This document shows, piece by piece, positions 3,435 through 23,412 of a stretch of DNA of 24,000 nt; the first letter of the stretch is position 1; every line of letters starts with the position of its first letter. Both the position numbers and the translations under genes were made by a program. A model generated the notes under the pieces. The model searched no databases and had not been told where the DNA came from. It saw nothing but the letters and a program-made list of their open reading frames with translations. The stretch is from Candidatus Amarobacter glycogenicus (GTDB taxonomy: Bacteria; Chloroflexota; Dehalococcoidia; Tepidiformales; Tepidiformaceae), in NCBI GenBank assembly GCA_016719395.1, contig JADJZF010000003.1, positions 303,391-327,390 of the forward strand, in the 5' to 3' direction.

Positions 3435-3471
3435 TTGACTGGTTATGCAAGCGTAGCCACTATGTGGCTAC
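3435..3471 (+). promoter_or_regulatory. candidate vapBC promoter (TTGACT -35) with overlapping operator palindrome GTAGCCAC-TAT-GTGGCTAC
   Basis: TTGACT at 3435-3440. A perfect 8-bp inverted repeat at 3453-3471 covers the expected -10 position, 23 nt upstream of the antitoxin GTG at 3494. Confidence 0.4.
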
Positions 3472-7935: not shown

Positions 7936-8062
7936 CACCGCCCACACCCGCGTAGCCGCGGGAGCAACCCCAGCCGAAGCCCGGGAACGGCTCCGTTATT
8001 GACGGAACCGGACTCGGGTTTCAGACTGGAAAGACCGTCCACGGAATTCCCGGGAGATCAGT

Positions 8063-8374
8063 ATGGAAGCGATCGTACGCGCCGATGGGCGCCAACTGCG
8101 CCTTGCAGAGGGGCAAGAATTTGAGATCAGCCGCGTTGCGGGTGAACCTGGGGACACGGTGGACCTCGATGTGATGATGGTGCTCGATGGCGCCAGCGTG
8201 ACCGTCGGCACTCCACTCGTATCCGGGGCTTTGGTGAAAGCGCGCATTACCCAGCACGGCCGCGCTCCGAAGCTCGTCTTCATGAAGTACAAGAACAAGG
8301 TGCGTTACCGCCGCAAGTTCGGGCACCGCCAGCAAGTGACTCGGCTCGTCGTCGAGTCCATCTCGAAGGGTTAG
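8063..8374 (+). CDS. rplU: 50S ribosomal protein L21
   Basis: [18 protein letters not shown]...[16 protein letters not shown] is typical L21. The SD GGGAG lies upstream. Confidence 0.95.
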
Positions 8375-8936: not shown

Positions 8937-10013
8937 CTAGAGCCGCTGGCCGGTCCCTGGGTCGAAGAGGTAGGCGGAACTCAGGGAAGGTTTTAACACC
9001 ACAGTCTCGCCCACGCGTACGAGGCACGCCGGGTCGAGCCGCGCGGTCACATCGCCCGAACCGGTCTCAGCCGTCACGAAGAGGTCGCTACCGTGCGGTT
9101 CTACGAGCCGCACTTCGCCCGCGAGACCGCCGCCACCGGTTGCGGGTTGCCGGTCAAACTGCTCGGGGCGAATTCCCAGCAGGACCGGACCGGGCTTCAG
9201 GTCCGTAGGGACACTGTCAGCCGGGAGCGGCATGGTGAAGCTCTTGCTGACGAACGCTACTGACTCACCCAGGTACACGATTTCGCCCGGGATGAGGTTC
9301 ATCGCCGGGCTGCCGATGAATGTCGCGACGAACGCATTCGCCGGCCTGTCGTAAAGCTCCTGGGGCGGGGCAACCTGCTGAAGCAGGCCGTCCTTCAGGA
9401 CTGCGATGCGTGTGCCCATCGTCATCGCTTCCACCTGATCGTGAGTCACGTAGATCACCGTGGCTTCGAGCCGCCGATGGAGCGCGCTGATCTCCGCCCG
9501 CATCTTGAGCCGCAACTGGGCGTCGAGGTTGCTGAGCGGTTCATCCATCAGGAAGGCGCTCGGACGGCGCACGATGGCGCGCCCCAGTGCGACTCGTTGA
9601 CGTTGGCCACCTGAGAGTTCGCGCGGCTTGCGTTCCAACAGTCCGCCGATGGCGAGCATCTCGGCCGCCTGTACTACCCGTGCCTTGATCTCCTCGCGCG
9701 ATGTCTTCCGCTGCTTCAAGCCGAACGCCAGGTTGTCGTAGACGGTCATGTGCGGGTAGAGGGCGTAGCTCTGGAAGACCATCGCGATGTCTCGCTGGGA
9801 AGGCTCAACGAAAGTCACATCGCGGCCACCGATGGATATGACGCCGGAGGTCGGCGTTTCGAGACCCGCCACCATGCGCAGGGCAGTGGTCTTGCCGCAC
9901 CCGGACGGCCCAACAAGCACGAGGAACTCCCCCTCAGCCACATCGAGACTGAGATTATCGACGGCGCGGACGTTGCCAAAGTGCTTGCTCACCGAATCAA
10001 TTTCAACCGTCAT
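8937..10013 (-). CDS. ABC transporter ATP-binding protein, MalK/UgpC/MsiK-like (CUT1 family)
   Basis: Walker A GPSGCGKTT, signature LSGGQRQR, Walker B FLMDEPLSNLD, and a C-terminal MalK-type regulatory/TOBE-like extension. Confidence 0.9.
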   Translation of the reverse strand: MTVEIDSVSKHFGNVRAVDNLSLDVAEGEFLVLVGPSGCGKTTALRMVAGLETPTSGVISIGGRDVTFVEPSQRDIAMVFQSYALYPHMTVYDNLAFGLKQRKTSREEIKARVVQAAEMLAIGGLLERKPRELSGGQRQRVALGRAIVRRPSAFLMDEPLSNLDAQLRLKMRAEISALHRRLEATVIYVTHDQVEAMTMGTRIAVLKDGLLQQVAPPQELYDRPANAFVATFIGSPAMNLIPGEIVYLGESVAFVSKSFTMPLPADSVPTDLKPGPVLLGIRPEQFDRQPATGGGGLAGEVRLVEPHGSDLFVTAETGSGDVTARLDPACLVRVGETVVLKPSLSSAYLFDPGTGQRL

Positions 10014-10084: not shown

Positions 10085-11473
10085 TCAGGCCTTCAGCTTC
10101 GGCTTCACATCGTTCTCATAGGCCTTTTCGAGCTCCTTTTTCACGTCGGGCCAGACGTTCTTGGCGTCTTCGTTGTTGAGGATCATGCGCTCAAGGCCCT
10201 TGCCAAGGATGGCGTCGCCGCCGGGGATGTAGACGCGCGCGGAGTCCTGCGGCTGAGTTTTTGCGAGCTGGTCGATGGCTGTCTTGAACTGAGGCTTCGA
10301 CTTGAGGAACTCGGCCATCGGCCCGGTGACCGCCGACTTCCGCACCGGCATGTAACCCACGTTCTGGGAGTAGTAGGCGGTGTTTTCGGGCTCGGTGATG
10401 AACTTGATGAAGGTCATCGCCGCGACCTTGTTGGCGTCCGGGACAGCCTCAGGGATGCCGAGCCCGGCGCCGCCCGTCGGACAGCCGAACTTCGTCTTCT
10501 CCGGGTAGAAGGCGGTCCCCACTTCGAATTTCGCGTCCCGGAGGACGCCGGCGAGGCCGCCCGTGGACGACAGCATCGAGGCCGTGGTACCGGCGACGAA
10601 GTCAGCTGTCTCGCTGTTCGCAGTCACGTTCGCGTACTTCTTCGAAAAGACCTGGCTCCGGACGTAGTTGCCGGCGTCGATCGCCTGTTGAGAATCGAGG
10701 AGCATCTTGAACTGCTCATCGCTGTAGCGGCCACCAAACTGCCAGATGATGCCTTGAAAGGTCCATGCGGCGTAGCTGTCACCCTTCACGTGGGTGAAGG
10801 CGTACTCGTTTGCACCGGCTTTGGCCTGGAGCTTCGCTCCCCACTCATCCATCTCGTCCCAAGTTTTCGGGCCGCGATCCGGGAGGCCGGCCGCCGACCA
10901 CTTCTGCTTGTTGTAGTAGAAGAGGGGCGTGGAACGGGCGAACGGCATGGCCCACTGTTTTCCGTCGTACTGATAGTCCTTGAAGAGCGTGTCCTGATAG
11001 TCCGCCGTCTCGACTTTAAGCTCCTTCAAGAGGTCATCCATCGGCGTGATCGTCTTGGCGAGGAAGTACTTGAACCACCAGACATCGGAGAGCATGACGA
11101 CGTCGGGGATCTGTTTCGCTGCCAGGCCGGCATTGAACTTCTGGGACACTTCGGCGTAGTTGGCGCCGGCGGTTTCGAGTTTGACCTTAATGTCCGGGTT
11201 CTTGGCCTCGAAGCGCTTGATCAGCTCTTCTTCCACAGCCTTGGAATTGGCCGGATGGACGCTCCAGAAGGTGATCTGGGCGGCCGGCTTCACGCCGCCG
11301 AACTTCGTGGTCGTCGCCGGGCTGGCCGAATTGCCGGCCGTCGAAGCTGGCCCGGTGGTCGCCGGGTCCCCGCCGGTGGTGTCGTCATCGTCATCGCCGC
11401 CGCAGCCGACGAGGCCCAAAGCCGCAGCTCCGCCGGCCATGCCGAGGAGGTGCCTTCTCGTGAGTTTGGACAT
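10085..11473 (-). CDS. ABC transporter extracellular solute-binding lipoprotein (family 1, sugar/glycerol-phosphate type)
   Basis: Start moved to the ATG at 11473. MSKLTRRHLLGMAGGAAALGLVGCGG has a twin-arginine-like n-region plus a lipobox Cys, followed by an Asp/Thr-rich linker. The body resembles family-1 SBPs. Confidence 0.85.
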   Translation of the reverse strand: MSKLTRRHLLGMAGGAAALGLVGCGGDDDDDTTGGDPATTGPASTAGNSASPATTTKFGGVKPAAQITFWSVHPANSKAVEEELIKRFEAKNPDIKVKLETAGANYAEVSQKFNAGLAAKQIPDVVMLSDVWWFKYFLAKTITPMDDLLKELKVETADYQDTLFKDYQYDGKQWAMPFARSTPLFYYNKQKWSAAGLPDRGPKTWDEMDEWGAKLQAKAGANEYAFTHVKGDSYAAWTFQGIIWQFGGRYSDEQFKMLLDSQQAIDAGNYVRSQVFSKKYANVTANSETADFVAGTTASMLSSTGGLAGVLRDAKFEVGTAFYPEKTKFGCPTGGAGLGIPEAVPDANKVAAMTFIKFITEPENTAYYSQNVGYMPVRKSAVTGPMAEFLKSKPQFKTAIDQLAKTQPQDSARVYIPGGDAILGKGLERMILNNEDAKNVWPDVKKELEKAYENDVKPKLKA

Positions 11474-11529
11474 GAAAGTACTCCGTTCCCCTGTTTCGAA
11501 TTGCCTGTGTACCGCCACCAGGGCGGGAA

Positions 11530-12417
11530 TCACCCTTTCACGGACCCGGCCGTCAGGCCCTCCACGATGTGCCTCTGGGCCCACACAAAGAGCGCCAGGA
11601 CCGGCACGATGACGAGCACCGCTCCCGCCATCACCACGCCCCACTGCGTTTGGCCCTCCGAGTTCTGCAACTGCTGCAGACCGAGGGGCAGCGTGCGCAC
11701 CGTGTCATCGGTAGCGATGAGCAGCGGCCAGACGTAGTCGTTCCACTTCTCCACCACCGTGATGAGAACAAATGCGACCAGCGTCGGCCGCGACATCGGA
11801 AGGACGACGCTCCAGAGCATCCGCAAATTGCCCGCACCATCCATCCGCGCGGCCTCGATGACCTCGCGCGGGAGGGTGAGGAAGTGCTGGCGCATGAGGA
11901 ACGTGCCGAAGGCAACGCCCCCGCCCGGGATGATGATCCCCTGGTAGCTGTTTACCCAGCCGAGTTCCGAGACCAGGACGTAGTTGGGGATGAGCGTGAC
12001 CTGTTCCGGCACCATCAGCGCGGCGAGGATGCCCAGGAAGATCAGGTTCTTCTTCGGGAAGTCGAGGAACACCAGCGCGTAGGCAGTCAGCACCCCGTTG
12101 GTTACCTTCAGAAGACTCCCGAGCGACGTCGTGACGATGCTGTTCACGAAGTAACGCTCGAACGGCACGGCGGTCCACGCCTGTCTGAAGTTCTCCCAGG
12201 CGTACGTCTCCGGAAGCCAGGAAATTGGGAGCGTATAGATCTCCTGGCGAGTCTTCACCGATGCCGTCAGCATCCAGAAGAGCGGGGCGCAGATCAGGAG
12301 GACGACGCCGGCCACCAGCGCGTACTGCACCGCTAATCCCAGCCACGACTGCCAGGGCATCCGGCGAGAGCGGGCGGCGCCGGCGGGAAGCGGCTGCCGG
12401 TTGATCACTGTCATCAC
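11530..12417 (-). CDS. ABC transporter permease (MalG/UgpE-like)
   Basis: Six-TM protein with the EAA loop EVIEAARMDGAGNLRMLWSVVLPMSRP. Confidence 0.9.
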   Translation of the reverse strand: MMTVINRQPLPAGAARSRRMPWQSWLGLAVQYALVAGVVLLICAPLFWMLTASVKTRQEIYTLPISWLPETYAWENFRQAWTAVPFERYFVNSIVTTSLGSLLKVTNGVLTAYALVFLDFPKKNLIFLGILAALMVPEQVTLIPNYVLVSELGWVNSYQGIIIPGGGVAFGTFLMRQHFLTLPREVIEAARMDGAGNLRMLWSVVLPMSRPTLVAFVLITVVEKWNDYVWPLLIATDDTVRTLPLGLQQLQNSEGQTQWGVVMAGAVLVIVPVLALFVWAQRHIVEGLTAGSVKG

Positions 12418-13519: not shown

Positions 13520-14512
13520 ATGGCGGCAGCAAACCCACCGGCCCCACCGGCGAACGTCTACTTCGGTGGCCAGGCCGTCATCGAAGGTGTCATGATCCGC
13601 GGGCCCGAGCACATGGCCGTGGCAGTCCGCCACCCGAAGGGCCACATCGTCACGCACTCCGAGAAGCTCGGCGGAATCTACACCGGGCGCTCGCGCCGCA
13701 TCCCGCTGATGCGGGGCGTCGTGGTCCTCTGGGAAACGATGGCCCTCGGCATGCGCGCGCTGAACTACTCGTCGCGCATCGCCTTCGAAGAAGACACGGA
13801 CGAGAACGGAGAGCCGGCCGAGTTCCCGGAAAAGGTGTTCTTCGGGACGATGGCGTTGGCGCTCGTGTTCGTGGTCGGGATCTTCTTCGCCGGGCCGATC
13901 CTGCTCGCGAACCTGCTCGAGATGGTCGACGCCCACCGCATCGTGATCGTCGCGGTCGAAGGCGTCGTGCGGCTCGTCTTGTTCGTCGGCTACATCTGGC
14001 TGATTGGCCTCGTGCCGGATATCCGCCGCGTCTTCCAGTACCACGGCGCCGAACACATGACCATCCACGCCTACGAGGCGCGGAAACCGCTCATCGTCTC
14101 CGAGATTCGCCCGTTCCCGAAGGAGCACACGCGCTGCGGCACGAGCTTCCTCCTCGTCGTCGTCTTCGTGGCCCTCATCACCTTCTTCATCTTCGACCTG
14201 CTCGTCGACAAGGGGCTCATCGTCCGGACGGCCTCACGAATCGTCTTCATGCCGATCGTCGCAGGCATCAGCTATGAGATCCTTCGCATCGGCGCGCGCT
14301 TTGGCGGGAACTGGTTCGTACATGCGATGTTTGTCCCGAACATCGCCCTCCAGGCACTGACCACGAAGGTCCCCGACGACGGCCAGATCGAAGTGGCGAT
14401 CGCCTCGTTCAAGGCGACGCTGGAAGCCGCGGGGCTTGGACCGATGCCTGAAGAGGACGGCGAACACCGGGAGATTGCCGGAGCGCTGGCGGCGTCCCCG
14501 CCGCTGGACTGA
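13520..14512 (+). CDS. DUF1385 domain-containing membrane protein (YqhQ-like)
   Basis: N-terminal YFGGQAVIEGVMIRG and the later QYHGAEHMTIHAYE motif, plus several TM helices, match my recollection of the DUF1385 family. Confidence 0.75.
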   Translation: MAAANPPAPPANVYFGGQAVIEGVMIRGPEHMAVAVRHPKGHIVTHSEKLGGIYTGRSRRIPLMRGVVVLWETMALGMRALNYSSRIAFEEDTDENGEPAEFPEKVFFGTMALALVFVVGIFFAGPILLANLLEMVDAHRIVIVAVEGVVRLVLFVGYIWLIGLVPDIRRVFQYHGAEHMTIHAYEARKPLIVSEIRPFPKEHTRCGTSFLLVVVFVALITFFIFDLLVDKGLIVRTASRIVFMPIVAGISYEILRIGARFGGNWFVHAMFVPNIALQALTTKVPDDGQIEVAIASFKATLEAAGLGPMPEEDGEHREIAGALAASPPLD

Positions 14513-14687
14513 AGTGCCACTCGTGATGAGAACCATGGCTTCGGCGCTTTCAGCGCGGGGGGCCGGCGCGGGCGGGGCCGACCAGGCGAACACCTGGCAT
14601 CGTTGAACTCGGCGTTGTGCATTGTCCAATCGTAGAGGGAGCGGTGTGGTGGGCGGTAATCTTCACGTTATGGCTCTCCACATTTTA

Positions 14688-14705
14688 GAACGTTTGTTCT
14701 ATACT
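14688..14705 (+). promoter_or_regulatory. LexA (Cheo-type) SOS box GAACGTTTGTTC abutting a TATACT -10 hexamer, upstream of imuB
   Basis: GAAC-N4-GTTC at 14688-14699 and TATACT at 14700-14705. The ATG follows only 10 nt later with no SD, which implies a near-leaderless mRNA. The same composite is found upstream of dnaE2. Confidence 0.75.
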
Positions 14706-14715
14706 CCCAGATCCC

Positions 14716-15996
14716 ATGGACGTGGCCTGCCTCATCGTGCCGAACTTCCTCGTGGCGCTGGCCCGCCGCGAACATCCCGAGCTGGCGAAACGCCCGGTGG
14801 TGGTTGGCGGCGCCCCGGAAGAGCACGCGGCAGTGACCGCCTGTTCGCCCGAAGCCGCGGCTGCCGGCGTCACCGTGGGGACGACGCTCCGCCGGGCGCT
14901 GGCGCTCTGTTCGGACGCCGTCTTCCTCCCGCTGCAGGAGGGGTTTGCGCGCGCCGAAGCCCAGGTCCTCGCCGAACTCGTTCGCAACCGCAGCCCGCTG
15001 GTCGAATCCGTGGGCCCGGGGCACCTGCACTTCGAAGTCCGTGGCCTCCCCCGCCTGGCGGGCCTCAGTGACGAGGAGTACCTGGAGCAGTTCCAGGAGA
15101 GCATTGCCGCGCGCACCCGCCTGCCGGTGCACCTGGGCGCAGCAGTGAGCGTGTTCGCAGCCCATGTGGCAGCGCTCAAGCCCTCACCTCCAGGCCCCCT
15201 TCCCCAGGCTCGGGAACGAGGGAGCAACCTGCGCGCCGCGAAATCAATCGTCAATCCACAATCCACAATCCGAAATTGGACGCTTGTACCGGGCGCGAGC
15301 GAGCGGGAGTTTCTCGCAACGGCACCCGTGGATGTGTTGCCTGTGGACCCGGTTATGCACCTGCGGCTGCGGCTATTTGGGCTGGAGTGGCTGGGCCAGG
15401 TGGCAGAGATACCCATTTCGGCGATGCAGGCGCAGTTCGGGGCAGATGGCACGCGGGCAAGGGGCCTCGCGCGGGGAGAAGACCACTCGCGCATTGTCCC
15501 GGAGCGGGAAGAAATACGCGTGACCGAGGAGATCGAACTGCCGGCTCCCGCCGCCACCAGCGAACCACTGGTGGCGGGCACCGAGGCACTCCTCCAGCGG
15601 GCTCTCGGGCATGCGGATGTGCGCGGGCAGACGGTCCGGCGGGTCGATTGGTGGCTCGCACTGGAGAGCGGCGAGCAGGTCACCCGGCGGGTGGTCTTTC
15701 GCGAACCCACAAGCGATGTGCGCCGGATGGTCTTCGTCCTCCGCGGGAAGATCGAACGACTCGCACTCGATTCCGCAGCCGTCGGCCTGGGCGTTGCGCT
15801 CTCCGGCCTCTGCAGCGAATACGCCCACCAGGGAAACCTCTGGCAGCTTGGCCCGCGTCGCCAGCGCGAACTCGACGACGCAATCGAACAACTGAACACG
15901 CGAGCCGGCGAACCACAGGTCTACCGCGTCGTGGAGGTCCAACCATGGTCGAGAATCCCCGAACGGCAGGTGGCACTGGTGGCCTACGGCTCCTGA
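14716..15996 (+). CDS. imuB: ImuB-like inactive Y-family DNA polymerase (core domains; C-terminal domain is out of frame downstream)
   Basis: Y-family fold pattern, but the catalytic acidic residues are replaced. IVPNF stands in place of DMDxFF, and VGPGHLHFEV in place of SLDEAYLDV. A clamp-motif-like QGNLWQ and an ...RIPERQ... segment lie near the end. Confidence 0.8.
   Translation: MDVACLIVPNFLVALARREHPELAKRPVVVGGAPEEHAAVTACSPEAAAAGVTVGTTLRRALALCSDAVFLPLQEGFARAEAQVLAELVRNRSPLVESVGPGHLHFEVRGLPRLAGLSDEEYLEQFQESIAARTRLPVHLGAAVSVFAAHVAALKPSPPGPLPQARERGSNLRAAKSIVNPQSTIRNWTLVPGASEREFLATAPVDVLPVDPVMHLRLRLFGLEWLGQVAEIPISAMQAQFGADGTRARGLARGEDHSRIVPEREEIRVTEEIELPAPAATSEPLVAGTEALLQRALGHADVRGQTVRRVDWWLALESGEQVTRRVVFREPTSDVRRMVFVLRGKIERLALDSAAVGLGVALSGLCSEYAHQGNLWQLGPRRQRELDDAIEQLNTRAGEPQVYRVVEVQPWSRIPERQVALVAYGS
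15180..15272. repeat. GC-rich palindromic element inserted in frame in imuB, ending in four tandem heptamers CAATCGT/CAATCCA/CAATCCA/CAATCCG
   Basis: Starts with GCCCTCACC...GCCCCC...GGGAACGAGGGAG...TCAATCGT. It encodes the low-complexity segment PSPPGPLPQARERGSN... A related copy lies at 21431-21503. Confidence 0.45.
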
Positions 15997-16274
15997 ACCA
16001 GCCGAAACCGGCCGCGGTGGAAGCAAATGCACATGGCGAGCCGGACGCTGTCGTTGTCCAGGGCCGCTTCCAGCGCGTCCGCGCTATCCAGGATAGCTGG
16101 CGAATCGACGACGAGTGGTGGCGCGAAGAGATCGCCCGCCGCTACTTCGCTGTCGAACTCGAAAACGGCCGCAAACTCACCGTCTACCACGACCTCGTCG
16201 GCGGCGGCTGGTTCGCCCAGGCGTACGACGGACCGCAGCCGGCGAAAGGCACTCCCAACAAGCGCCGCGACTGA
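15945..16274 (+). CDS. ImuB C-terminal domain, encoded in the -1 frame relative to the imuB core (separate small protein or frameshifted tail)
   Basis: LRLLNQPKPAAVEA...DSWRIDDEWWREEIARRYFAVELENGRKLTVYHDLVGGGWFAQAYDG resembles the conserved RLL..P.P / ERI..EWW / RDYY.VE..G / WFLHG C-terminus of ImuB proteins (from memory). The ATG at 15945 has GGAGG 7 nt upstream. Confidence 0.6.
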   Translation: MVENPRTAGGTGGLRLLNQPKPAAVEANAHGEPDAVVVQGRFQRVRAIQDSWRIDDEWWREEIARRYFAVELENGRKLTVYHDLVGGGWFAQAYDGPQPAKGTPNKRRD

Positions 16275-16326
16275 TCGTAAGCTTCGGTGGCTTCGTACCT
16301 GTATCACCACCACGGGAGAACCCCCT

Positions 16327-17088
16327 TTGAATCGCACCATCCCGGTCACCGAGGCCCAGGCGAAACGTCTGCGCCGGTACAACGCTCTGATGGGCCTCCT
16401 CCACGCCGGGCAGGGTATCGTCATCCTCCTGCTCGCAAACGGCTTCGTCCTCCCCGTGACAAGCACATTCATGGAGGGGCCGCCTGGCACCGAGAGCGCA
16501 CTCCGCCACCTGTTCGATGTCCGCATCGCCCTGGGCGTGGCGGCGTTCGTGTTCATCTCCGCGGCCGCGCACTGGCTGGTCGCCGGGCCGTTCTACGGCT
16601 GGTACGTGGCGAACCTCCGCGAGCAGCGGAACTATGCCCGCTGGGTGGAGTACTCGGTGAGCGCCTCGGTGATGATCGTCCTCATCGCGATGCTCACCGG
16701 GATCAGCGAGATCGCGGCGCTCATCGGACTGTTCGCAGCGAACGCCGCCATGATCCTCTTTGGGCTCGCGATGGAACACTACGAGCAGCCTGGCCGCCCG
16801 AACTGGCTGATGTTCTGGTTCGGATGCCTCTTTGGCGCGGTCCCCTGGCTGGCGGTCGGCATCTACGTCTGGAGCCCGGGGCTCGCTGCCGAGCCTCCAG
16901 CTTTCGTCTACGGGATATTCGTCTCGCTTTTCATCTTCTTCAACTGTTTCGCCCTCAACATGTGGTTGCAGTACCGGCGCATCGGGCCGTGGCGGAACTA
17001 CCTGTTCGGAGAATCTGTCTACATCTTCCTCAGCCTCACGGCGAAGTCCGCCCTCGCCTGGCAGGTGTTCGCCTCGACACTCGTTTAG
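16327..17088 (+). CDS. heliorhodopsin (retinal-binding, inverted-topology 7-TM photoreceptor)
   Basis: 253 aa from the TTG at 16327, with GGGAG 8 nt upstream. Strong resemblance throughout to HeR 48C12: RWVEYSVSASVMIVLIA (counterion Glu108), FWFGC..G.VPW, FVYGI.VSLF.FFN.FAL and SLTAKSALAWQ (Schiff-base Lys240). Confidence 0.9.
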   Translation: MNRTIPVTEAQAKRLRRYNALMGLLHAGQGIVILLLANGFVLPVTSTFMEGPPGTESALRHLFDVRIALGVAAFVFISAAAHWLVAGPFYGWYVANLREQRNYARWVEYSVSASVMIVLIAMLTGISEIAALIGLFAANAAMILFGLAMEHYEQPGRPNWLMFWFGCLFGAVPWLAVGIYVWSPGLAAEPPAFVYGIFVSLFIFFNCFALNMWLQYRRIGPWRNYLFGESVYIFLSLTAKSALAWQVFASTLV

Positions 17089-17118
17089 CAGTGCATTCCA
17101 CGGCTATGCTTTGGCTGC

Positions 17119-18303
17119 ATGGACTACCAACAGCTGCTTGCCGACCGTACTCGCCTGATGGAGGCGAGCGTCATCCGAGAAATCCTGAAGGTCGCTTCGT
17201 CCCCCGGGATGATTTCACTGGCCGGGGGCCTCCCGGCCGCCGAGAGCTTCCCGCTGGAGATCATGGAAGAGCTCATGGGCGCCGTCCTCGGCAAGTACGG
17301 GAGCAAAGCCCTCCAGTACGACGCCAGCGAGGGCTGGGGCCCGCTCCGCGAAGCGCTCGTCCCTCACCTGGCCGCCCGCGGCGTGACCACCACCGCTGAC
17401 GGTGTCCTGATCATGAGCGGCTCGCAGAGCCTGCTCGACGGGATCGGGAAGATCCTCATTTCACCCGGTGATTATGTCGCAGTGGAAGCACCGACTTATC
17501 TCGGCGCCCTCCAGGCATTCAACCCGTACGAACCGCGCTACCTCGAAATCGAGACAGACGACGGCGGGCTCATTCCCGAATCGCTTGAACGTGTCCTTTC
17601 GGGCCAGCGCGTGAAGCTGGTGTACCTCGTCCCGACATTCCAGAACCCCACGGGCCGCACGCTTTCGCTGGCGCGGCGGAAACAGGTGGCCGACATCCTG
17701 AAACGTCACGACACCCTCCTGCTGGAGGACGACCCTTACAGCGACCTCCGTTACTCGGGCGAACGCGTCCCCCCGATCAAGTCGCTCGCGCCGGAGCACG
17801 TGGTCTATTCAACCACGCTCTCAAAGACGTTCGCGCCCGGGCTACGGATCGGGGTTTGCATCGCCCCGGAGTTCATCCAACGCTGGCTCGTGACGGCCCG
17901 GCAGGGCGTCGACCTCCATACGAACACGCTCGCGCAGGCGCTGGCAGCCGAATACCTGACCGGCGGATATCTCGATCGGCAGCTTCCCAGGATCATCGAG
18001 CTTTACGCGCCCCGCCAACTGGCGATGCTCGATGCACTCGAACGCCATATGCCTGAAGACTTCACCTGGTCCCACCCGGAAGGCGGCATGTTCGTCTGGG
18101 TCGAAGGACCGAAGGGGTTCGATGCCGTAGAACTCCAGCGACGCGTGCTCGAACACGGCGTCGCCTTCGTGCCGGGGCGGTACTTCTACGTGAACGAAGA
18201 GGAGGGTGCGGCGACCCTGCGGATGAACTTCACTGCCGCGGATGCCGCAACGATCGAGCACGCGGTAGGAGTCATTGCCGACGTGATGGCAGAGATGCTC
18301 TAG
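17119..18303 (+). CDS. PLP-dependent aminotransferase, class I (2-aminoadipate/LysN-like family)
   Basis: IREILK...ISLAGGLP, QYDASEGWGPLREAL, PTFQNPTG, and LSKTFAPGLRIG carrying the PLP lysine. 394 aa. Confidence 0.85.
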   Translation: MDYQQLLADRTRLMEASVIREILKVASSPGMISLAGGLPAAESFPLEIMEELMGAVLGKYGSKALQYDASEGWGPLREALVPHLAARGVTTTADGVLIMSGSQSLLDGIGKILISPGDYVAVEAPTYLGALQAFNPYEPRYLEIETDDGGLIPESLERVLSGQRVKLVYLVPTFQNPTGRTLSLARRKQVADILKRHDTLLLEDDPYSDLRYSGERVPPIKSLAPEHVVYSTTLSKTFAPGLRIGVCIAPEFIQRWLVTARQGVDLHTNTLAQALAAEYLTGGYLDRQLPRIIELYAPRQLAMLDALERHMPEDFTWSHPEGGMFVWVEGPKGFDAVELQRRVLEHGVAFVPGRYFYVNEEEGAATLRMNFTAADAATIEHAVGVIADVMAEML

Positions 18304-18335
18304 GAACCGGGCGGTCGATCACGCGTTCGGCTCGC

Positions 18336-20090
18336 CTAACCGAAATCGTGTGAATCCATCTTCTCAATATGCCCTGGTAATGGGCAGGCATGGAACTCCT
18401 CTGCGATGATGTTCGGGAAGCCGCTCTGCTCGTTATCGATGCGGCCGCGGACGATGACGAAGGGCGTGCCACGGACGAGTTCGCGCCGGCGCTCCTGAAG
18501 CGGCGTGTACACGACGAGATTCGCGAGCCCGAACTCGTCTTCCAGCAGCATGAACATCACGCCACTCGCCGTGGATGGCCGTTGCCGCGTTACCACCATG
18601 CCGGCCATTTCGACCATCATCCCCTGGGGCATGCGGTTCGGGTTGTGGACCCCGCCAAGGTGGCGGCTGGTTATCATCCCTTCGTGGAGGAGCGGCCGGA
18701 CGAGTTGCATCGGGTGGTTGCCGGGGCTGAGGCCGAGTTTCTCCACATCCCATGCGAGTGAAAGCCAGGGCGTGAGTGGCGGCAGTTCGACCATGTCCTG
18801 CTCGGTGGGGAGGGCGAGGGCGAGTTGCTCTTTCAGCCCCTTCCGGCTTCTCACATGCGAGGGGGCGGCGCGCACTTCAGTGAGAAGCCCCAGCTGCCAG
18901 AGGAGTTCGCGCCGTGGCAGGCCGAACTCTTCCATGGCGCCTGCGCGGATGAGCGTTTCGGCCTGCTCGCGCGAGATATGCGCGCGTACCAGCAGGTCGC
19001 GCAGCGAGACGTACGGGCCATTTGCCTCGCGCTCGGCGACGATCTGGTCCGGGGTAGTAGCGTAAGCCGGGTCGCGGTGATGCTGGCGGATGTCCTGCCA
19101 ACCGCCGCCGAGGCCTTTCACCTGCTGCAGTCCCAGGCGGATATCCCCGTTTTCCGGCCAGGCGCCGGCCCGGCTGGCGTTGATCGAAGGCGGCAGCGTC
19201 TGGATACCGTGCCGGCCCGCATCCTGAGTGAGCACTTCGACCGAGTAGAAGCCCATCGGCTGGGCATTGAAGAGCGAGCAGTAGTAGGCGGCAGGATAGT
19301 GGTAGCGCAGCCAGGTGGACTCATATGCGAGGAGGGCAAAAGCCACCGCATGGCTCTTCGGGAAACCGAAGGCCGCGAACGCCGCCATCTTGTCGAAGGC
19401 TACTTTGGCGGCAGCGCGGCTCAATCCCTGGCGATCGGTGCCGGCATAGAACTCCTCGGCGAGCGCCTGCATCGCCTCGGATGAGCGCTTCCGGCTCATC
19501 GCCCGGCGGAGCTTATCGGCCTGTCCCGGAGTGAATCCTGCGACTGACGTCGCAATCTGGAGCACCTGGTCCTGGTAGAGCACATGCCCGAGCGTTTCGC
19601 CCAGGCACCAGGCGAGCTTTGGAGCCAGTTCCGGATGACCGTAGTCCACCTCGACGTGTTCACCGCGGGCGAGGGCCTCGCGGTAGTGCATATAGGGCCG
19701 GAAGGCACCCGCCATGATTGGCCCCGGACGGATGATCGCCACCTGCACGGCGAGGTCATCAAGGTTTCGCGGCTGTGTCCGCGGCAGCGTCTGCACCTGT
19801 GCCCGGCTCTCGATCTGAAAGACACCCATCGTGTCGCCCTCCCGGATTGAGTCGTAGATCTCCGGGCTGTCATGGGGGATACGCCCAAGGTCGACTCGTA
19901 TGCCATGCACCTCTTCGATGATGTCGAGACACTCATCGACCGCTGAAAGCATGCCGAGTGCGAGGAAGTCAATCTTCACGAAGCGTGCATCATCGGCCGA
20001 ATCCTTATCCCACTGGCAGACAAAGCGACCATCCATGCGCGCCGGCTCGATGGGCACAACCGAAGACAGGGTCTCTGCCGAGATGATCAC
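18336..20090 (-). CDS. dnaE2: error-prone DNA polymerase DnaE2/ImuC, C-terminal fragment (frame continues upstream to about 20120 without a start codon)
   Basis: Contains CQWDKDSADDARFVKIDFLALGMLS, GVFQIESRAQ, FGFPKSHAVAFA, the OB-fold region and a terminal ...SHDFG. These are the Pol III alpha palm, fingers and OB domains. Confidence 0.85.
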   Translation of the reverse strand: MIISAETLSSVVPIEPARMDGRFVCQWDKDSADDARFVKIDFLALGMLSAVDECLDIIEEVHGIRVDLGRIPHDSPEIYDSIREGDTMGVFQIESRAQVQTLPRTQPRNLDDLAVQVAIIRPGPIMAGAFRPYMHYREALARGEHVEVDYGHPELAPKLAWCLGETLGHVLYQDQVLQIATSVAGFTPGQADKLRRAMSRKRSSEAMQALAEEFYAGTDRQGLSRAAAKVAFDKMAAFAAFGFPKSHAVAFALLAYESTWLRYHYPAAYYCSLFNAQPMGFYSVEVLTQDAGRHGIQTLPPSINASRAGAWPENGDIRLGLQQVKGLGGGWQDIRQHHRDPAYATTPDQIVAEREANGPYVSLRDLLVRAHISREQAETLIRAGAMEEFGLPRRELLWQLGLLTEVRAAPSHVRSRKGLKEQLALALPTEQDMVELPPLTPWLSLAWDVEKLGLSPGNHPMQLVRPLLHEGMITSRHLGGVHNPNRMPQGMMVEMAGMVVTRQRPSTASGVMFMLLEDEFGLANLVVYTPLQERRRELVRGTPFVIVRGRIDNEQSGFPNIIAEEFHACPLPGHIEKMDSHDFG

Positions 20091-21718
20091 GCCGCCGACG
20101 TGCTGGCCGATGTGACGGGGAAGCCCGCTGCCTGCCCGGCCAGCTCCACCATGTCGCGCCAGATTGGTGCGTCGATGAGCTGGCGGAGTTCTGGCACACG
20201 TTTCATCTCCTCTGCGATATCGGTTGCGTTGGCGAAGTGGCCGCCGAATTTGTTGAGTTTCGCCAGGACCGGCAACGGCAGGCCGAGGGCCTTCCCAATA
20301 TCCAGTACCGCGCTGCGAAAGCGGTATGTCGGGAAGGCGGCGACAATCGCCGCGTGCTCGTCTCCGTAGCGGTCGTAGATCCGCTGGAGCACCTGGTCGC
20401 GGATGTCACGCGGGAAGTCCAGGTCGATATCCGGGAGCGAGTGGAGCTCCTCGTTGAGGAAGCGCTCGAGGTAGAGGTTGTTGCGTACCGGGTCGATGTG
20501 GGAAAGCCCGATGAGGTAGCAGACGATTGAACTGACTGAAGAGCCTCGGCCCCGGCCGACCGGGCGTTCGTCTGGCTGGAGGCGCGGATCGCGCCCGCGG
20601 ACTTCGACGGCGATCTCATTTACGAGCAGGAGAATGTCCCAGTAGACCAGGAAGAAGCCGGCGAGCCCGTGCTTCGCTATCAGTGTCAGTTCGCGTTCGA
20701 GACGTTCGCGCGCCTCCTTCTGGAAGGGGTCGGTCGCCGGGTACTTGCGCCGGAAGGCTGGTCCGCAAATGCCGCGCAAATGACTGTCGAGCGTGGCTCC
20801 TTCAGGAACGGGGTAGTCCGGCAGGCGATAGGGAAGGTCACGCGTGAGATCGAACCGGCAGCGCTCCGCGATGGCGAGCGTGTTCTCAATCGCCTGCGGG
20901 TAACGCTCGAAACGGCGTGCCATCCCTGCGGCCGGCTTCAGGAAGAACTCCGAGTTGGGCCTTCGCACCTGGTGCGAACTATCGAGCGTCTGCCGATGGC
21001 GGACGGCGACCAGCACATCGTTCAGGCGGTGACGGGTGCGCACGTGGTAGTGGACGTTGTTCGTTGCCACCGTCTCGATTCCCAATTGCTCGGCCAGGCT
21101 CGCGAGGGCGGCAACCCGCTCCGTATCGCCGAAAACATCGTGGTGCTGAAGTTCGATGTAGTAGCGGTCGCCGAAGATGGCACGATAAGCCGTGGCCAAC
21201 TCCATCGCGGCACTATGCGACGACGACGCAACGGAGGGGTCGCTGAGGCGGACGAGTTCGGAATCTCGGCAGCCAGAAAGGACGATGAGGCCTTCGTTCA
21301 GCTCGAACAGCCACTCACGTTCGACGAGCGGGGTGTCTTTCCCGTGCACCTGGTAGGCGCGGCTGAGCAAACGGCAGAGGTTGCGGTAGCCGGTGACATC
21401 CATCGCGAGGATGGTCAGGTGAGTGGTCGGGCCCTCACCCCCCGCCCCCCTCTCCGGACTTCCTGCGGTCGCGGGAGAGGGGGAGTATCCAATCGTGATT
21501 TCCGCTCCGGTGATCGGCTTCAGCCCACGCTCGTTCGCAGACTTTGCGAACTCCATCGCGCCATAGAGGTTGTCGTGGTCGGTGAGGGCGAGGGCGGGAT
21601 AGCCCAACTGCAACGCGCGGTCGATCAGCTCATCGGTGGCGCTGGCGCCTTCGCGCGGGGACCAGCAGGAGTGTGCATGGAGTTCGACGTAGTTGGAGGA
21701 ATGCCGGGTGGCGTTCAT
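20087..21718 (-). CDS. dnaE2: error-prone DNA polymerase DnaE2/ImuC, N-terminal fragment (PHP domain and palm with PDIDLDF)
   Basis: The ATG at 21718 gives MNATRHSSNYVELHAHSCWS (PHP domain). It has the catalytic LPDIDLDFP and ends ...ELAGQAAGFP, then runs out of frame to a stop at 20087. Confidence 0.85.
   Translation of the reverse strand: MNATRHSSNYVELHAHSCWSPREGASATDELIDRALQLGYPALALTDHDNLYGAMEFAKSANERGLKPITGAEITIGYSPSPATAGSPERGAGGEGPTTHLTILAMDVTGYRNLCRLLSRAYQVHGKDTPLVEREWLFELNEGLIVLSGCRDSELVRLSDPSVASSSHSAAMELATAYRAIFGDRYYIELQHHDVFGDTERVAALASLAEQLGIETVATNNVHYHVRTRHRLNDVLVAVRHRQTLDSSHQVRRPNSEFFLKPAAGMARRFERYPQAIENTLAIAERCRFDLTRDLPYRLPDYPVPEGATLDSHLRGICGPAFRRKYPATDPFQKEARERLERELTLIAKHGLAGFFLVYWDILLLVNEIAVEVRGRDPRLQPDERPVGRGRGSSVSSIVCYLIGLSHIDPVRNNLYLERFLNEELHSLPDIDLDFPRDIRDQVLQRIYDRYGDEHAAIVAAFPTYRFRSAVLDIGKALGLPLPVLAKLNKFGGHFANATDIAEEMKRVPELRQLIDAPIWRDMVELAGQAAGFPVTSASTSAA
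21431..21503. repeat. GC-rich palindromic element inserted in frame in the dnaE2 PHP domain
   Basis: GCCCTCACC..., then a 10-bp perfect stem CCCCCTCTCC (21446-21455) / GGAGAGGGGG (21474-21483), then ...CCAATCGTGA. It encodes SPSPATAGSPERGAGGEG and is related to 15180-15272. Confidence 0.45.
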
Positions 21719-21724
21719 GGGCCG

Positions 21725-21742
21725 AGTATAGAACATTTGTTC
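21725..21742 (-). promoter_or_regulatory. LexA (Cheo-type) SOS box GAACAAATGTTC abutting a TATACT -10 hexamer, upstream of dnaE2
   Basis: The minus strand reads GAACAAATGTTC TATACT CGGCCC ATG. The box is at 21731-21742 and the -10 at 21725-21730. Only 6 nt separate it from the ATG at 21718, which suggests a leaderless mRNA. Confidence 0.75.
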
Positions 21743-21933
21743 GCTTTGGTGTCTTGGGCCCGGGCCAGCCCCGCTCTTTCGACTGTCCACCTGATCATCA
21801 CGGAGCAGTAATCGGTCGGCGTCCTGAACGTTCGCAATGCGGGCCTTGCCACCCGCGATCGGGGATTTCCCTGTTGCACGCAGCAGAGGGAAAGGACTAC
21901 AGTGCAAGTCCACTTCACAGTTGGAATGACATT

Positions 21934-22728
21934 ATGTTTGCTCGTCTGGGAATCCTCTTTGCAATGGCGGTCGCGATCGGGACACTTGGGCTCGGCTTTG
22001 GCCAGCGCGAGGCCTCGGCCGCGGACAAGGTCGTCACGCTCAACCCGACCTCGGGGATCGTGGGGACGGTGGTGACCGCCGAACTCTTCAATGCCCCACC
22101 CGACGACTTCATCACGGTCATCTTCAAGATCCCCGGCGACCCTATCCTGACTACCGGCACAACTGACGCGAACGGCTACGCGAAGTTCACGTTCACCATC
22201 CCGTACGTCCCCGGCGGCGGCACCTGGCCCGTGTTCTTCACCGACTTCAAGTGCTCCTGCCAGATTGCGACGTACTTCACCGTCATCAACAGCCGTCCGA
22301 CACCGATCCCCACGGCCACACCAACTGTCCCACTGCCCACGAGCACCCCTGTAACTCCGCTCGCGACCGCAACCGCAACCCCAACCAGGACACAGACGCC
22401 TGCCGTGCCGGTGCTTGGCACGGGACAGATCGGCGGCGGCGGTCCCGGCCCCAACCTTGGCATCCTCGCGCTCGGCGCGATGGCCGTCGTGACGGTGCTC
22501 GCCTGGTTCGCCGCGACACGCCGCGGACCGGCAAGGGCGTTTGCCCTGGCGCCGATCGATTCTGACCCAACTCCGGACTATTCGACGGACCTCGACCTCG
22601 CGACGCTCCACAGCTTGCGACGCGCGCGCCCGGCAGCTCCCGCTGCGCGCGGAAGCGGTGGGTTTGGCTGGGTGCTCGGCGCGGGGCTTGGCGCGATTGC
22701 TGGCATCGTCCTGCTACGGAAGAAGTAG
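21934..22728 (+). CDS. secreted, membrane-anchored protein with a beta-sandwich-like domain and a Pro/Thr-rich linker
   Basis: Signal peptide MFARLGILFAMAVAIGTLGLGFGQREASA|AD, PT-rich residues 121-158, a TM helix at 174-194, and a second hydrophobic segment plus RKK at the extreme C-terminus. Confidence 0.7.
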   Translation: MFARLGILFAMAVAIGTLGLGFGQREASAADKVVTLNPTSGIVGTVVTAELFNAPPDDFITVIFKIPGDPILTTGTTDANGYAKFTFTIPYVPGGGTWPVFFTDFKCSCQIATYFTVINSRPTPIPTATPTVPLPTSTPVTPLATATATPTRTQTPAVPVLGTGQIGGGGPGPNLGILALGAMAVVTVLAWFAATRRGPARAFALAPIDSDPTPDYSTDLDLATLHSLRRARPAAPAARGSGGFGWVLGAGLGAIAGIVLLRKK

Positions 22729-22777: not shown

Positions 22778-23260
22778 TCAACGGCTGAGCCGCTGCCGTG
22801 ACGCCGGCACTGCCTCGCCCTTCAACTTCGCGCTGTATTCCTCGTGAGGGGGGACTTCCTCGCCCACGACATACAGGAAGTAGTACACGCCGAAGTTGCC
22901 GACATGCTTGAAGCGCTTCTTGATGTCGGAGAGCTGCGACTCGAACGGGCGCATCGCTTCAAGGTACTTCGCGAAGCTCCCGAACTCTTTTTCGGCGGCG
23001 AGCATCGCCGCGGCATTGTGGACCGTAGCTTCGACTTTCCGCCCATTCCGGATGATGCGCGAGTCCGCCAGTAGCCGGTCGGTATCGACGGGTGAATAGG
23101 CGGCCACCTTCACCGGATCGAACCCATCGAAGGCCGCCTGGAACCCGGGCCACTTGTTCTCGATGACCTTCCAGTTCATGCCGGCTTCGAAGACCGCCTT
23201 CGAGAGCACCTCAAGGTAATCTGCCAGCTTGGTTGGTTTGATCTGGACTGGTGCTTCCAT
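22778..23260 (-). CDS. DNA-3-methyladenine glycosylase I (Tag) family protein, lacking the N-terminal zinc-motif region
   Basis: FEAGMNWKVIENKWPGFQAAFDGFDPVKVAA, SRIIRNGRKVEA and FKHVGNFGVYYFL parallel E. coli Tag (QAGLSW..., FDPVKVAA, IIRHRGKI, FKFVG). The ATG at 23260 has GGAGG upstream. Confidence 0.7.
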   Translation of the reverse strand: MEAPVQIKPTKLADYLEVLSKAVFEAGMNWKVIENKWPGFQAAFDGFDPVKVAAYSPVDTDRLLADSRIIRNGRKVEATVHNAAAMLAAEKEFGSFAKYLEAMRPFESQLSDIKKRFKHVGNFGVYYFLYVVGEEVPPHEEYSAKLKGEAVPASRQRLSR

Positions 23261-23412
23261 TTGGCGTTCCTCCCCCAAAGGTTGGAGAAGAATGTAGCCC
23301 ATCCTGCGGCGGCCTGGGCGCCCCTTGCTGCGCTATCCTGTCCTTCGTCGCCGGCATCGCGTTTGGGGAGCTATCGCGGTGACATCTCAAGAGAACTGAG
23401 GTGAGATAGCTC

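Follow-up and report, generated by a model that had tools for sequence, protein, structure and literature searches.

The 24,000-nucleotide stretch of Candidatus Amarobacter glycogenicus DNA analysed here (the window) raises the question of why a heliorhodopsin gene (HeR) and an aminotransferase gene (AT) lie between the imuB and dnaE2 genes of an SOS mutasome. The initial annotation had interpreted imuB, imuB-C, HeR and AT as a single LexA-controlled operon, in which HeR, with AT, would act as a mutasome accessory connecting light sensing to damage tolerance. On the evidence of the sequence, we consider it fairly probable (about 0.6) that two unrelated things stand side by side, namely a split SOS mutasome and a HeR-AT pair with an ECF-type promoter of its own. 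The mutasome, its LexA boxes and the adjacency within the clade were thus recognised correctly, and the part that found no support is that HeR depends on, or works with, the LexA unit.

The four genes are arranged head to tail on the forward strand as initially described, and coordinates and Pfam identities agree. The imuB-C/HeR gap is 52 nt (16275-16326) and the HeR/AT gap 30 nt (17089-17118), and dnaE2 runs towards the 3' end of AT from the opposite strand. As had been noted, neither gap contains a terminator-like hairpin, folding being no better than that of shuffled sequences (z of +0.9 and -0.5, respectively). The common strand, the short gaps and the missing hairpins would all suit a single operon, but a missing terminator is not diagnostic, and none is recognisable at the convergent AT/dnaE2 junction either.

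The identification of the flanking genes as mutasome genes was confirmed by Pfam and NCBIfam matches and by residue alignments. The imuB-like gene (14716-15996, forward strand) encodes a Y-family polymerase (Pfam IMS, 2.4e-22) that scores far under all DinB cut-offs in NCBIfam and is predicted to be catalytically inactive; in the alignment with Pol IV 4dez, a Pro (PNF) stands opposite the Asp of the conserved N-terminal DQF, which we take to be a catalytic position, and GH stands opposite the catalytic DE. The following reading frame (15945-16274, forward strand) shares 52 nt with the 3' end of imuB in another frame and has a Shine-Dalgarno sequence, GGAGG, 7 nt ahead of its ATG. A frameshifted imuB tail was considered for this region and rejected; it is a separate, conserved gene for a small standalone ImuB-C, in agreement with the earlier proposal of an imuB C-domain encoded on its own. 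Its match to DUF6504 is weak (20.6 bits, below the Pfam cut-off of 24.2), and DUF6504 is matched by 14 of the 43 members of the ImuB-C family, at best with 8e-8. The family has invariant W58, W59, R65 and Y67, plus a C-terminal W89, which fits ImuB-C as defined and described previously (PMC3765255), and in the surveyed loci its gene always has the polymerase gene on one side and dnaE2 on the other. The dnaE2 gene (18336-21718, reverse strand; PHP, DNA_pol3_alpha, finger, HHH_6 and OB domains) encodes an error-prone DNA polymerase. In the window a G5 run (20117-20120) has lost one nucleotide, which breaks the gene and splits its domains over two reading frames; the copy in locus L002 is intact, with 1127 aa, and reaches 969 bits against NF004225 ("error-prone DNA polymerase"), for which the cut-off is 939. 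The locus lacks imuA.

The putative imuB promoter (14677-14705, forward strand) comprises a -35-like TCCACA (14677-14682), a 17-nt spacer and the -10 element TATACT (14700-14705). The Cheo-type LexA operator GAACGTTTGTTC (GAAC-N4-GTTC, 14688-14699), which is extended to the palindrome TAGAAC-N4-GTTCTA (14686-14701), overlaps this -10 element; the imuB ATG follows 10 nt past it, and the mRNA is predicted to be nearly leaderless. The dnaE2 promoter (21725-21742, reverse strand) is of one design with it, a LexA box, GAACAAATGTTC (21742-21731), being fused to a -10 TATACT (21730-21725); the ATG, at 21718, lies 6 nt past the -10 element, and a leaderless mRNA is predicted. These two are the only GAAC-N4-GTTC sequences in the whole window (0.43 expected). 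The imuB box is found at -28 in the relatives L009, L169 and L171, the dnaE2 box at the matching place in L007, L009, L171 and L093, and LexA boxes precede 30 of the 41 complete imuB starts in unrelated metagenomic dnaE2 loci. The SOS boxes originally assigned to imuB and dnaE2 are therefore real, as a LexA-controlled operon would require. One half of the mutasome would consist of the inactive polymerase and the standalone ImuB-C and the other of the convergent dnaE2, each under its own LexA-repressed promoter that would yield a leaderless or nearly leaderless mRNA. Against an extension of this control to HeR, no LexA box stands just upstream of HeR at any other HeR locus, and the boxes of the clade are those of imuB and dnaE2.

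HeR itself (16327-17088, forward strand, 253 aa) is unambiguous: PF18761 is matched with 1.2e-97, NCBIfam NF038020 with 313.6 bits (cut-off 100) and the 48C12 structures with E=1e-72, and the protein keeps the residues opposite those that we take to be the retinal Lys (SLTAKSALAWQ), the counterion Glu (RWVEYS) and both His of 48C12. A Shine-Dalgarno sequence, GGGAGA (16314-16319), lies 7 nt ahead of its TTG start, which was independently chosen by the gene caller; the RefSeq form also has 253 aa. AT (17119-18303, forward strand; PF00155, Aminotran_1_2, 1e-31) is a class I/II PLP-dependent aminotransferase of the 2-aminoadipate transaminase or MocR-effector-domain type, without HTH. It stays under all specific NCBIfam cut-offs, and is annotated in the sources as PLP-dependent aminotransferase family protein or 2-aminoadipate transaminase. 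AT directly follows HeR in all clade loci that have the cassette and enough downstream sequence (L173 has a short downstream reading frame with no AT match), and would most likely be co-transcribed with it.

The SOS box/-10 composite had been described as the only recognisable promoter, which is true of sigma-70-type scans only. In such a scan of positions 14300-22200 the imuB promoter was the sole match, and no sigma-70-like promoter was detected within 430 nt upstream of HeR, relaxed thresholds included. This result would be expected of one operon, but the scans also miss most other operon starts in the window. The alignment of HeR upstream regions revealed in the 52-nt gap a conserved bipartite motif, TGATCG-N16-CGTAC (16272-16299, forward strand), with a candidate -35 element TGATCG (16272-16277), a 16-nt spacer and a candidate -10 element CGTACC (16294-16299). 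It was matched in 12 of 88 HeR loci (0.44 expected). The exact motif occurs in 11 of the 17 loci of the HeR subclade of at least 69% identity, compared with 0.4% of control windows, and in 1 of 71 more distant HeRs, although these subclade loci are related, so that the enrichment counts partly depend on one another. Nine of the 11 gene-proximal strict matches at all loci are upstream of HeR, and perfect matches in clade loci are upstream of HeR only. The spacer is fixed at 16 nt and carries no sequence information. The motif stands behind at least six different upstream genes (imuB-C, DUF6582, DUF1385, PaaD-like, HIT and Peptidase_M16), 20-35 nt ahead of the Shine-Dalgarno sequence in most lineages; L009 and L172 have no good match. 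From these features we infer that TGATCG-N16-CGTAC is a promoter, and likewise the sigma factor using it; HeR would be transcribed from this element inside the gap, and its nearest known consensus is that of ECF11 RpoE-ChrR, which responds to singlet-oxygen and light stress.

The gene order was then compared within the clade, a narrow Dehalococcoidia group of wastewater Chloroflexi around Candidatus Amarobacter glycogenicus. The adjacency is indeed shared by relatives. Nine distinct lineages were compared (HeR 75-94% identical to that of the window), and eight of them carry imuB-C ahead of HeR in the same orientation, HeR-AT being kept between imuB-C and dnaE2. This conservation, together with the lack of terminators, would also fit a maintained SOS-linked unit. 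The junction has no intervening gene in five lineages, one or two same-strand genes in L172 and L173, and three genes in L009, one on the same strand and two on the other. Because the intervening genes vary from 0 to 3, some of them on the opposite strand, the boundary between imuB-C and HeR is not constrained. Moreover, L167, which is nested in the clade, has HeR with the motif directly after DUF1385, and imuB, AT and dnaE2 are all missing within 10 kb of HeR. HeR thus carries its own conserved motif whatever gene precedes it, and its dependence on the LexA unit is not sustained.

Outside the clade, no general association was observed. Among 80 metagenomic dnaE2 loci, the colinear pattern, seen where the loci extend far enough, places imuB (52 of 80) and ImuB-C (60 of 80) upstream of dnaE2 on the same strand, and none of the 80 contains HeR or AT. 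Of the other HeR loci (about 70-76 surveyed), only L055, with a distant HeR, has a dnaE2 cassette nearby, at 1.3 kb; by a rough estimate 0.3-0.5 such cases are expected over about 1.25 Mb of surveyed flanks, and this co-occurrence, which might have spoken for a functional link, is about at chance level.

We propose that the order imuB-C, HeR-AT, dnaE2 originated once in the clade ancestor and has persisted by descent, and that deletions in the window species would have pulled HeR so near imuB-C that the -35 element overlaps the imuB-C stop codon TGA, as it also does in L007 and L169. Since a terminator is absent, damage-induced imuB transcription may run into HeR-AT; such read-through is possible in this species but would be incidental, a by-product and not a maintained design, its extent being a matter of inference. 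HeR appears to be tied to DNA-damage control by inherited gene order and not by shared function, because it carries what appears to be its own stress-type promoter.

A variant in which this read-through is substantial, so that HeR-AT of the tight-junction lineages would receive a dual input from the ECF-type promoter and from the imuB SOS promoter, is unlikely. The motif and the missing terminator do coincide in the window, L007, L169 and L170 (gaps of 40-62 nt), and in the first three the junction is as tight as survival of the motif allows; photo-oxidative stress and DNA damage would then each raise HeR-AT expression, which may be useful and would have arisen secondarily. Rho-dependent or other termination is, however, invisible in sequence, HeR-AT could equally suffer interference from the convergent, SOS-induced transcription of dnaE2, and the lineages with intervening genes show that the coupling is dispensable. 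It is similarly doubtful that TGATCG-N16-CGTAC is a dimeric-regulator site, another operator-like element or a 5'-UTR element, with HeR expression driven from another site, perhaps the imuB promoter in this species. In L167, L010 and L012 only 3-11 nt separate the CGTA box from the annotated start codon (in L173 and L013 the two are also awkwardly near each other), several lineages have a partly palindromic TGTA(C) after CGTAC, and the sigma factor is a candidate named from consensus likeness. Two short invariant boxes with a fixed-length, free spacer ahead of a Shine-Dalgarno sequence are, on the other hand, what a bipartite promoter classically looks like and match a documented ECF consensus, spacing included (PMC5507510); the boxes are neither inverted nor direct repeats of each other, and Rfam has no RNA family in this region. 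The single LexA-controlled operon, in favour of which the stimulation of photolyase by a HeR (PMC9769723), correctly mentioned in the initial annotation, may be cited, is improbable in view of the HeR-specific motif, the opposite-strand pair of L009 and the solitary HeR of L167.

No paper was found that reports HeR with imuB/dnaE2, in line with the initial statement that such a link is undescribed. The mutasome itself resembles the ImuA-less operon type of Kyrpidia tusciae, with an inactive PolY, a standalone ImuB-C and DnaE2 (Timinskas and Venclovas 2019, PMC6511836). The likeness extends to the same three proteins, a polymerase without catalytic carboxylates, LexA control, and a small, beta-rich ImuB-C made as a protein of its own, in which a C-terminal Trp is conserved. 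Unlike that operon, the one in the window is split: an inverted dnaE2, with a LexA box and a promoter to itself, converges on the other half, and two unrelated genes lie between the halves. The LexA operator is of the Cheo or Gram-positive type and in no way unusual, a perfect GAAC-N4-GTTC palindrome over the -10 element of two classic SOS genes that is conserved in orthologous promoters; in a 2002 J Bacteriol paper, Dehalococcoides LexA reportedly binds this sequence. The window shares with the split mycobacterial imuA'-imuB/dnaE2 cassette the two separately transcribed units (PMC6511836, PMC10421592), but that cassette includes ImuA', its ImuB-C is fused to ImuB, and no photoreceptor is involved. 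In mycobacteria, the two units are both LexA-regulated and are not known to be neighbours.

HeR has been described with photolyase (PMC9769723), glutamine synthetase and ABC transporter partners, and in ten groups of flanking genes (PMC11109279); regulatory-helper roles were deduced from the pattern of a HeR with a same-strand partner gene, and neither survey lists imuB or dnaE2 beside HeR. The HeR of the window is likewise directly followed by a same-strand gene for a soluble enzyme, but aminotransferases are outside the ten groups (PMC11109279) and HeR-AT is confined to one small clade. The candidate HeR promoter agrees with the ECF11 (RpoE-ChrR) consensus, TGATCC-N16-CGTA (PMC5507510, PMC4336711), in five of six -35 positions, the exact 16-nt spacer and the CGTA of the -10 element, and differs in a -35 element that ends in G in most clade loci and in its Chloroflexota hosts. 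No further members of such a regulon were seen in the DNA surveyed; known ECF11 regulons, which respond to singlet oxygen and light stress, include light-related genes such as photolyase and a bacteriophytochrome operon (PMC5507510, PMC4336711, PMC6852236).

The Y-family polymerase homologue gene imuB (14716-15996), the gene imuB-C for a standalone small protein (15945-16274), the heliorhodopsin gene (16327-17088) and a class I/II aminotransferase gene (AT; 17119-18303) lie head to tail on the plus strand, to the right of a DUF1385 gene (13520-14512), with intergenic gaps of 52 and 30 nt around the heliorhodopsin gene. The dnaE2 gene, on the minus strand, converges on the 3' end of this string. 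No terminator-like site was found in the two gaps, where folding was no better than that of shuffled sequences (z near 0), nor was a terminator or hairpin found in the convergent AT/dnaE2 gap, and an Rfam scan of the whole window returned zero matches. Canonical intrinsic terminators can be observed elsewhere in the window, at 2493-2458 (minus strand; 16-bp GC-rich stem followed by TTTTGTT) and 3453-3471 (plus strand; 8-bp stem followed by TTTCTTTT); since the organism evidently uses them, their absence around the heliorhodopsin-AT pair becomes slightly more meaningful. The tight gene string and the convergence of dnaE2 described in the initial annotation were thus confirmed. As a whole its observation was largely correct, and its interpretation, that heliorhodopsin and AT ride on a LexA-controlled imuB unit, is only partly supported.

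Two further features were noted at the edges of the locus. In another locus of the same species (L003) an additional methyltransferase gene (7558-8340 of that locus) is located between DUF1385 and imuB; the left edge of the cassette thus varies at strain level. A gene for 3-methyladenine DNA glycosylase I (Tag; 22778-23302, minus strand) lies approximately 1 kb past the dnaE2 promoter, and is found in the same neighbourhood in three related loci (L007, L009 and L171); it has no LexA box.

Judged by its sequence, the gene at 16327-17088 encodes a bona fide heliorhodopsin. The protein matches the full length of Pfam profile PF18761 (326.5 bits against a cut-off of 26.7; E-value 1.2e-97) and the NCBIfam heliorhodopsin equivalog NF038020 (313.6 bits against a cut-off of 100), and it can be aligned over its whole length with 6uh3 and 6su3, the structures of 48C12. 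The aligned segments (window/48C12) are SLTAKSALAWQ/SLVAKSALAWQ, RWVEYS/RWVEYS, GLLHAGQ/GVFHLLQ and SAAAHWLV/SALFHFIV. The 48C12 positions which we take to be the retinal-binding Lys in TM7, the counterion Glu in TM3 and two conserved His are all kept.

The identity of the three mutasome genes was likewise borne out by profile scores, alignment and family position. The imuB product matches Pfam IMS (2.4e-22) and falls far under every DinB cut-off in NCBIfam. In a pairwise alignment with Pol IV (4dez) the Asp of the DQF motif is replaced by Pro (PNF) and DE by GH, so that a Y-family fold with its catalytic carboxylates lost, predicted to be inactive, is encoded. The 109-aa imuB-C product matches DUF6504 only weakly (20.6 bits), but 14 of the 43 members of its family match that domain, which we take from context to be equal to ImuB-C. 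The gene is kept as an ORF of its own in all relatives, the family is always positioned between the polymerase gene and dnaE2, and a profile search against the PDB gave nothing significant. Certain Trp and Arg residues never vary within the family, a C-terminal Trp among them, and this pattern fits ImuB-C as defined in PMC3765255. The intact dnaE2 allele of the window species (L002) scores 969 bits against NF004225, 'error-prone DNA polymerase' (cut-off 939). Neither the window nor the related loci showed an imuA-like gene.

In every clade lineage checked (15945-15996 in the window; also L009, L169, L172 and L173), the ORFs of imuB and imuB-C share exactly 52 nt, which are read in different frames. 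A programmed -1 frameshift from imuB into imuB-C was considered and rejected, as no slippery heptamer could be read and imuB-C has its own SD sequence and ATG; a lone 519-aa fusion (P0159, from one MAG) goes back to one inserted nucleotide near 15961. The two look like translationally coupled genes with an unusually long conserved overlap. In the window the loss of one nucleotide from a G5 run at 20117-20120 breaks dnaE2 into two ORFs, 18336-20090 and 20087-21913 on the minus strand. The gene is intact, with 1127 aa, in three other assemblies of the species, and the break probably reflects a homopolymer indel that arose in assembly or at strain level and does not mark a pseudogene.

Two copies of the LexA box GAAC-N4-GTTC occur in the window, against 0.43 expected, and both abut a TATACT -10 element located 10 nt (imuB) and 6 nt (dnaE2) from the ATG; these short distances predict imuB and dnaE2 mRNAs that are leaderless or nearly so. 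The boxes stand at identical positions in L007, L009, L169 and L171. In unrelated dnaE2 loci boxes also precede imuB, at 30 of the 41 starts that are complete. A putative LexA operator that overlaps the promoter and is conserved in orthologues is therefore present at both genes. The SOS box/-10 composite at imuB and the box at dnaE2, as initially annotated, are real by count and by conservation, and LexA control of the mutasome is predicted from them. No LexA box was found directly upstream of the heliorhodopsin gene in any locus, and neither this gene nor AT qualifies as a predicted member of the LexA regulon.

The composite at imuB had been considered the only recognisable promoter of the string, which a comparison across the clade, the narrow Dehalococcoidia group around Candidatus Amarobacter glycogenicus, did not confirm. 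Alignment of the DNA upstream of the heliorhodopsin gene revealed two short conserved blocks, TGATC(G/C) and CGT(A/T), separated by a 16-nt spacer of unrelated sequence. In the window this ECF-type, promoter-like motif occupies 16272-16299 of the plus strand, with TGATCG at 16272-16277, overlapping the imuB-C stop codon, and CGTACC at 16294-16299; an SD sequence, GGGAGA, is found about 15 nt past CGTACC, followed by the TTG start of the heliorhodopsin gene. The motif accompanies the heliorhodopsin gene whether the gene in front is imuB-C or encodes a DUF6582, DUF1385, PaaD-like, HIT or Peptidase_M16 protein, and it lies at most 130 nt from the heliorhodopsin gene in 12 of 88 non-redundant loci (0.44 expected). 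The exact motif was present in 11 of the 17 loci of the nearest heliorhodopsin subclade (at least 69% identity), in one of 71 distant heliorhodopsins and in 0.4% of control windows; L009 and L172 have no good match. Invariant boxes at fixed spacing around a free spacer are the signature of a bipartite promoter, and we infer that the 52-nt gap holds an ECF-type promoter dedicated to the heliorhodopsin gene. The four genes resemble a single operon in strand, gap length and lack of terminators, but a predicted internal promoter is present.

In all the DNA examined, 11 strict matches were found near any gene start, nine of them upstream of a heliorhodopsin gene. The other two, at a bicupin gene in mutasome cassettes (L102 and L116), were rejected, since they are conserved coding sequence of dnaE2 read on the opposite strand; there the spacer is conserved too, unlike the free spacer at the heliorhodopsin gene. 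No conserved sigma-70 promoter was found upstream of the heliorhodopsin gene, even at relaxed thresholds, a silence that means little, as the same scan fails to detect roughly half of the operon starts of the window. The motif agrees with the ECF11 (RpoE-ChrR) consensus TGATCC-N16-CGTA (PMC5507510, PMC4336711) in nine of the 10 specified bases and in the exact spacing. Singlet oxygen and light stress are the signals to which RpoE-ChrR regulons respond, and a photolyase and a bacteriophytochrome operon are among their members (PMC5507510, PMC4336711). ECF sigma genes near heliorhodopsin genes were few and found in distant lineages only, none with the motif.

Nearly all functions proposed for heliorhodopsins derive from gene neighbourhoods, so that a neighbourhood shared with translesion synthesis would have offered a striking new clue. 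Among the 80 closest heliorhodopsin loci in species-representative genomes, mutasome genes flank the heliorhodopsin gene only in L007, L009 and, with a different geometry, L055; L001-L006 are the window species itself. Further close heliorhodopsins, obtained by protein search and traced to contigs, brought the clade to nine distinct lineages, whose heliorhodopsins are 73-94% identical to one another. Eight of the nine have imuB-C upstream of the heliorhodopsin gene and in the same orientation. The two genes are direct neighbours (40-147 nt) in five lineages (the window, L007, L169, L170 and L171), and are separated by one same-strand gene (DUF6582) in L172, by two (FMN reductase and DUF6582) in L173, and by two opposite-strand genes (DinB_2 and GDSL-like) plus DUF6582 in L009, where an amidase gene also separates AT from dnaE2. 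Possible hairpins follow DUF6582 and imuB-C in L172 and L173. AT follows the heliorhodopsin gene by 24-55 nt in every assessable cassette-holding lineage of the clade and in no other heliorhodopsin locus; imuB/imuB-C and heliorhodopsin/AT are the only junctions never broken. As a separate observation, the DUF6582 gene is immediately upstream of the heliorhodopsin gene in L009, L172 and L173, and in L172 an 11-bp perfect hairpin (1690-1725) is located between them, and this lineage lacks the ECF-like motif at that place.

By heliorhodopsin similarity the ninth lineage (L167/L008, Tepidiformaceae) falls inside the clade. L167 (GCA_963851475.1) shares the whole left flank of the window, about 10 kb from an MFS gene to L31 and DUF1385, and in its segment 8895-10798, which corresponds to 13520-17088 of the window, the heliorhodopsin gene directly follows DUF1385 with only the ECF-like motif between them. 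In this locus imuB, AT and dnaE2 are all absent within 10 kb of the heliorhodopsin gene, which suggests that the mutasome and AT were secondarily lost or moved; where the window has AT and dnaE2, the heliorhodopsin gene is faced by a convergent M19 dipeptidase gene.

An independent link in L055, whose heliorhodopsin shows 65% identity and where a cassette of colinear imuB, imuB-C and dnaE2 converges 1.3 kb away, was rejected, as its nearest heliorhodopsin relatives lack the cassette and roughly 0.3-0.5 chance co-occurrences are expected from about 1.25 Mb of surveyed flanks. With this outlier at about chance level and the other loci outside the clade lacking the link, the adjacency is clade-specific synteny. 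The proposed linkage with imuB and dnaE2 is thus kept as gene order in eight of nine clade lineages and, in the loci surveyed, does not extend beyond them; being inherited within a single small clade instead of recurring, it does not belong on the list of heliorhodopsin partners.

The reverse survey, centred on dnaE2, covered 80 metagenomic loci (38-75% identical; 862 kb), none of which contained heliorhodopsin or AT. Where upstream sequence was available, imuB, imuB-C and dnaE2 were on one strand, at times interrupted by unrelated genes. It is worth mentioning that in about 20 loci (L095-L102, L105, L108, L110-L117, L122, L126, L134, L156 and L162) opposite-strand genes interrupt the cassette between imuB-C and dnaE2; those scanned encode a bicupin (Cupin_2/ChrR-cupin-like) and a small TfoX_N-like protein, and imuB is usually preceded there by tandem GAAC-N4-GTTC boxes, located at -31 and -14. 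In L135 a GAF-GGDEF gene occupies the same slot. Unrelated genes have repeatedly entered the imuB-C/dnaE2 junction.

The units imuB/imuB-C and dnaE2, each with a LexA box, thus face each other across the heliorhodopsin-AT pair. LexA would repress both promoters until DNA damage, whereas the putative ECF-type promoter would drive heliorhodopsin, probably together with AT on one transcript, in response to stress of another kind, plausibly light or oxidative stress. The variable junction, the retention of heliorhodopsin and motif without the cassette in L167, and the lack of association elsewhere indicate that any coupling of heliorhodopsin to the SOS response is incidental. An inherited juxtaposition with independent regulation is the most likely explanation (probability about 0.6). 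By analogy with known partners (PMC9769723, PMC11109279), AT would be a more plausible heliorhodopsin client than the polymerase, and the clade-specific pair is a binding candidate, as were the glutamine synthetase, photolyase and ABC-transporter partners.

That the heliorhodopsins of this Chloroflexota subclade belong to an ECF-sigma light/singlet-oxygen stress regulon is a tentative proposal, standing at slightly below even odds, and is more probable than a role of the heliorhodopsin-AT pair as a mutasome accessory. The originally suggested light sensor tied to the SOS unit retains one element, since in the window species no terminator follows imuB-C and some damage-induced read-through into heliorhodopsin-AT might occur; against it stand the separate motif, the broken junctions and L167. 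It is improbable that in this clade the pair is a selected accessory of the split mutasome, retained between imuB-C and dnaE2 for an expression fed both by an ECF11-like photo-oxidative-stress promoter and by LexA-controlled read-through, with the light sensor tuning damage tolerance, perhaps via the aminotransferase or direct contact, when light and DNA damage coincide.

Elsewhere in the Chloroflexota, one protein cluster is encoded directly downstream of the heliorhodopsin gene in 20 of 79 loci (L044, L046, L057, L066 and about 16 others). The member scanned, from L066 (gene coordinates in the heliorhodopsin neighbourhood 10759-11607 and 9310-9888), has an HTH_17 and two B12-binding domains, like the light-responsive regulators CarH/LitR, and the cluster is probably the 'MerR family' group of PMC11109279. 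A lipoprotein gene is directly upstream of the heliorhodopsin gene in 17 loci, the L066 copy having a fasciclin domain. The adjoining of two photoreceptor types, heliorhodopsin and a CarH/LitR-like regulator, is noteworthy.

Published surveys of heliorhodopsin neighbours do not list imuB, dnaE2 or aminotransferase among the partners. In the literature we found no paper linking heliorhodopsin to an ECF sigma factor, and no ECF-sigma light or singlet-oxygen regulon link described for any heliorhodopsin. The part that might be new is therefore the ECF-sigma lead and not the SOS link. The motif is close to the RpoE-ChrR consensus and, if real, would offer a testable regulatory handle on heliorhodopsin; it also fits earlier hints tying heliorhodopsins to genes for photolyase and oxidative stress. 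Every component belongs to a known kind: a heliorhodopsin, an ImuA-less mutasome, a Cheo-type LexA operator and a putative ECF-type promoter. The cassette of the window corresponds to the ImuA-less arrangement described by Timinskas and Venclovas (PMC6511836), consisting of an inactive PolY, a standalone ImuB-C and DnaE2, and its split, convergent form recalls the mycobacterial cassette, which is likewise split.
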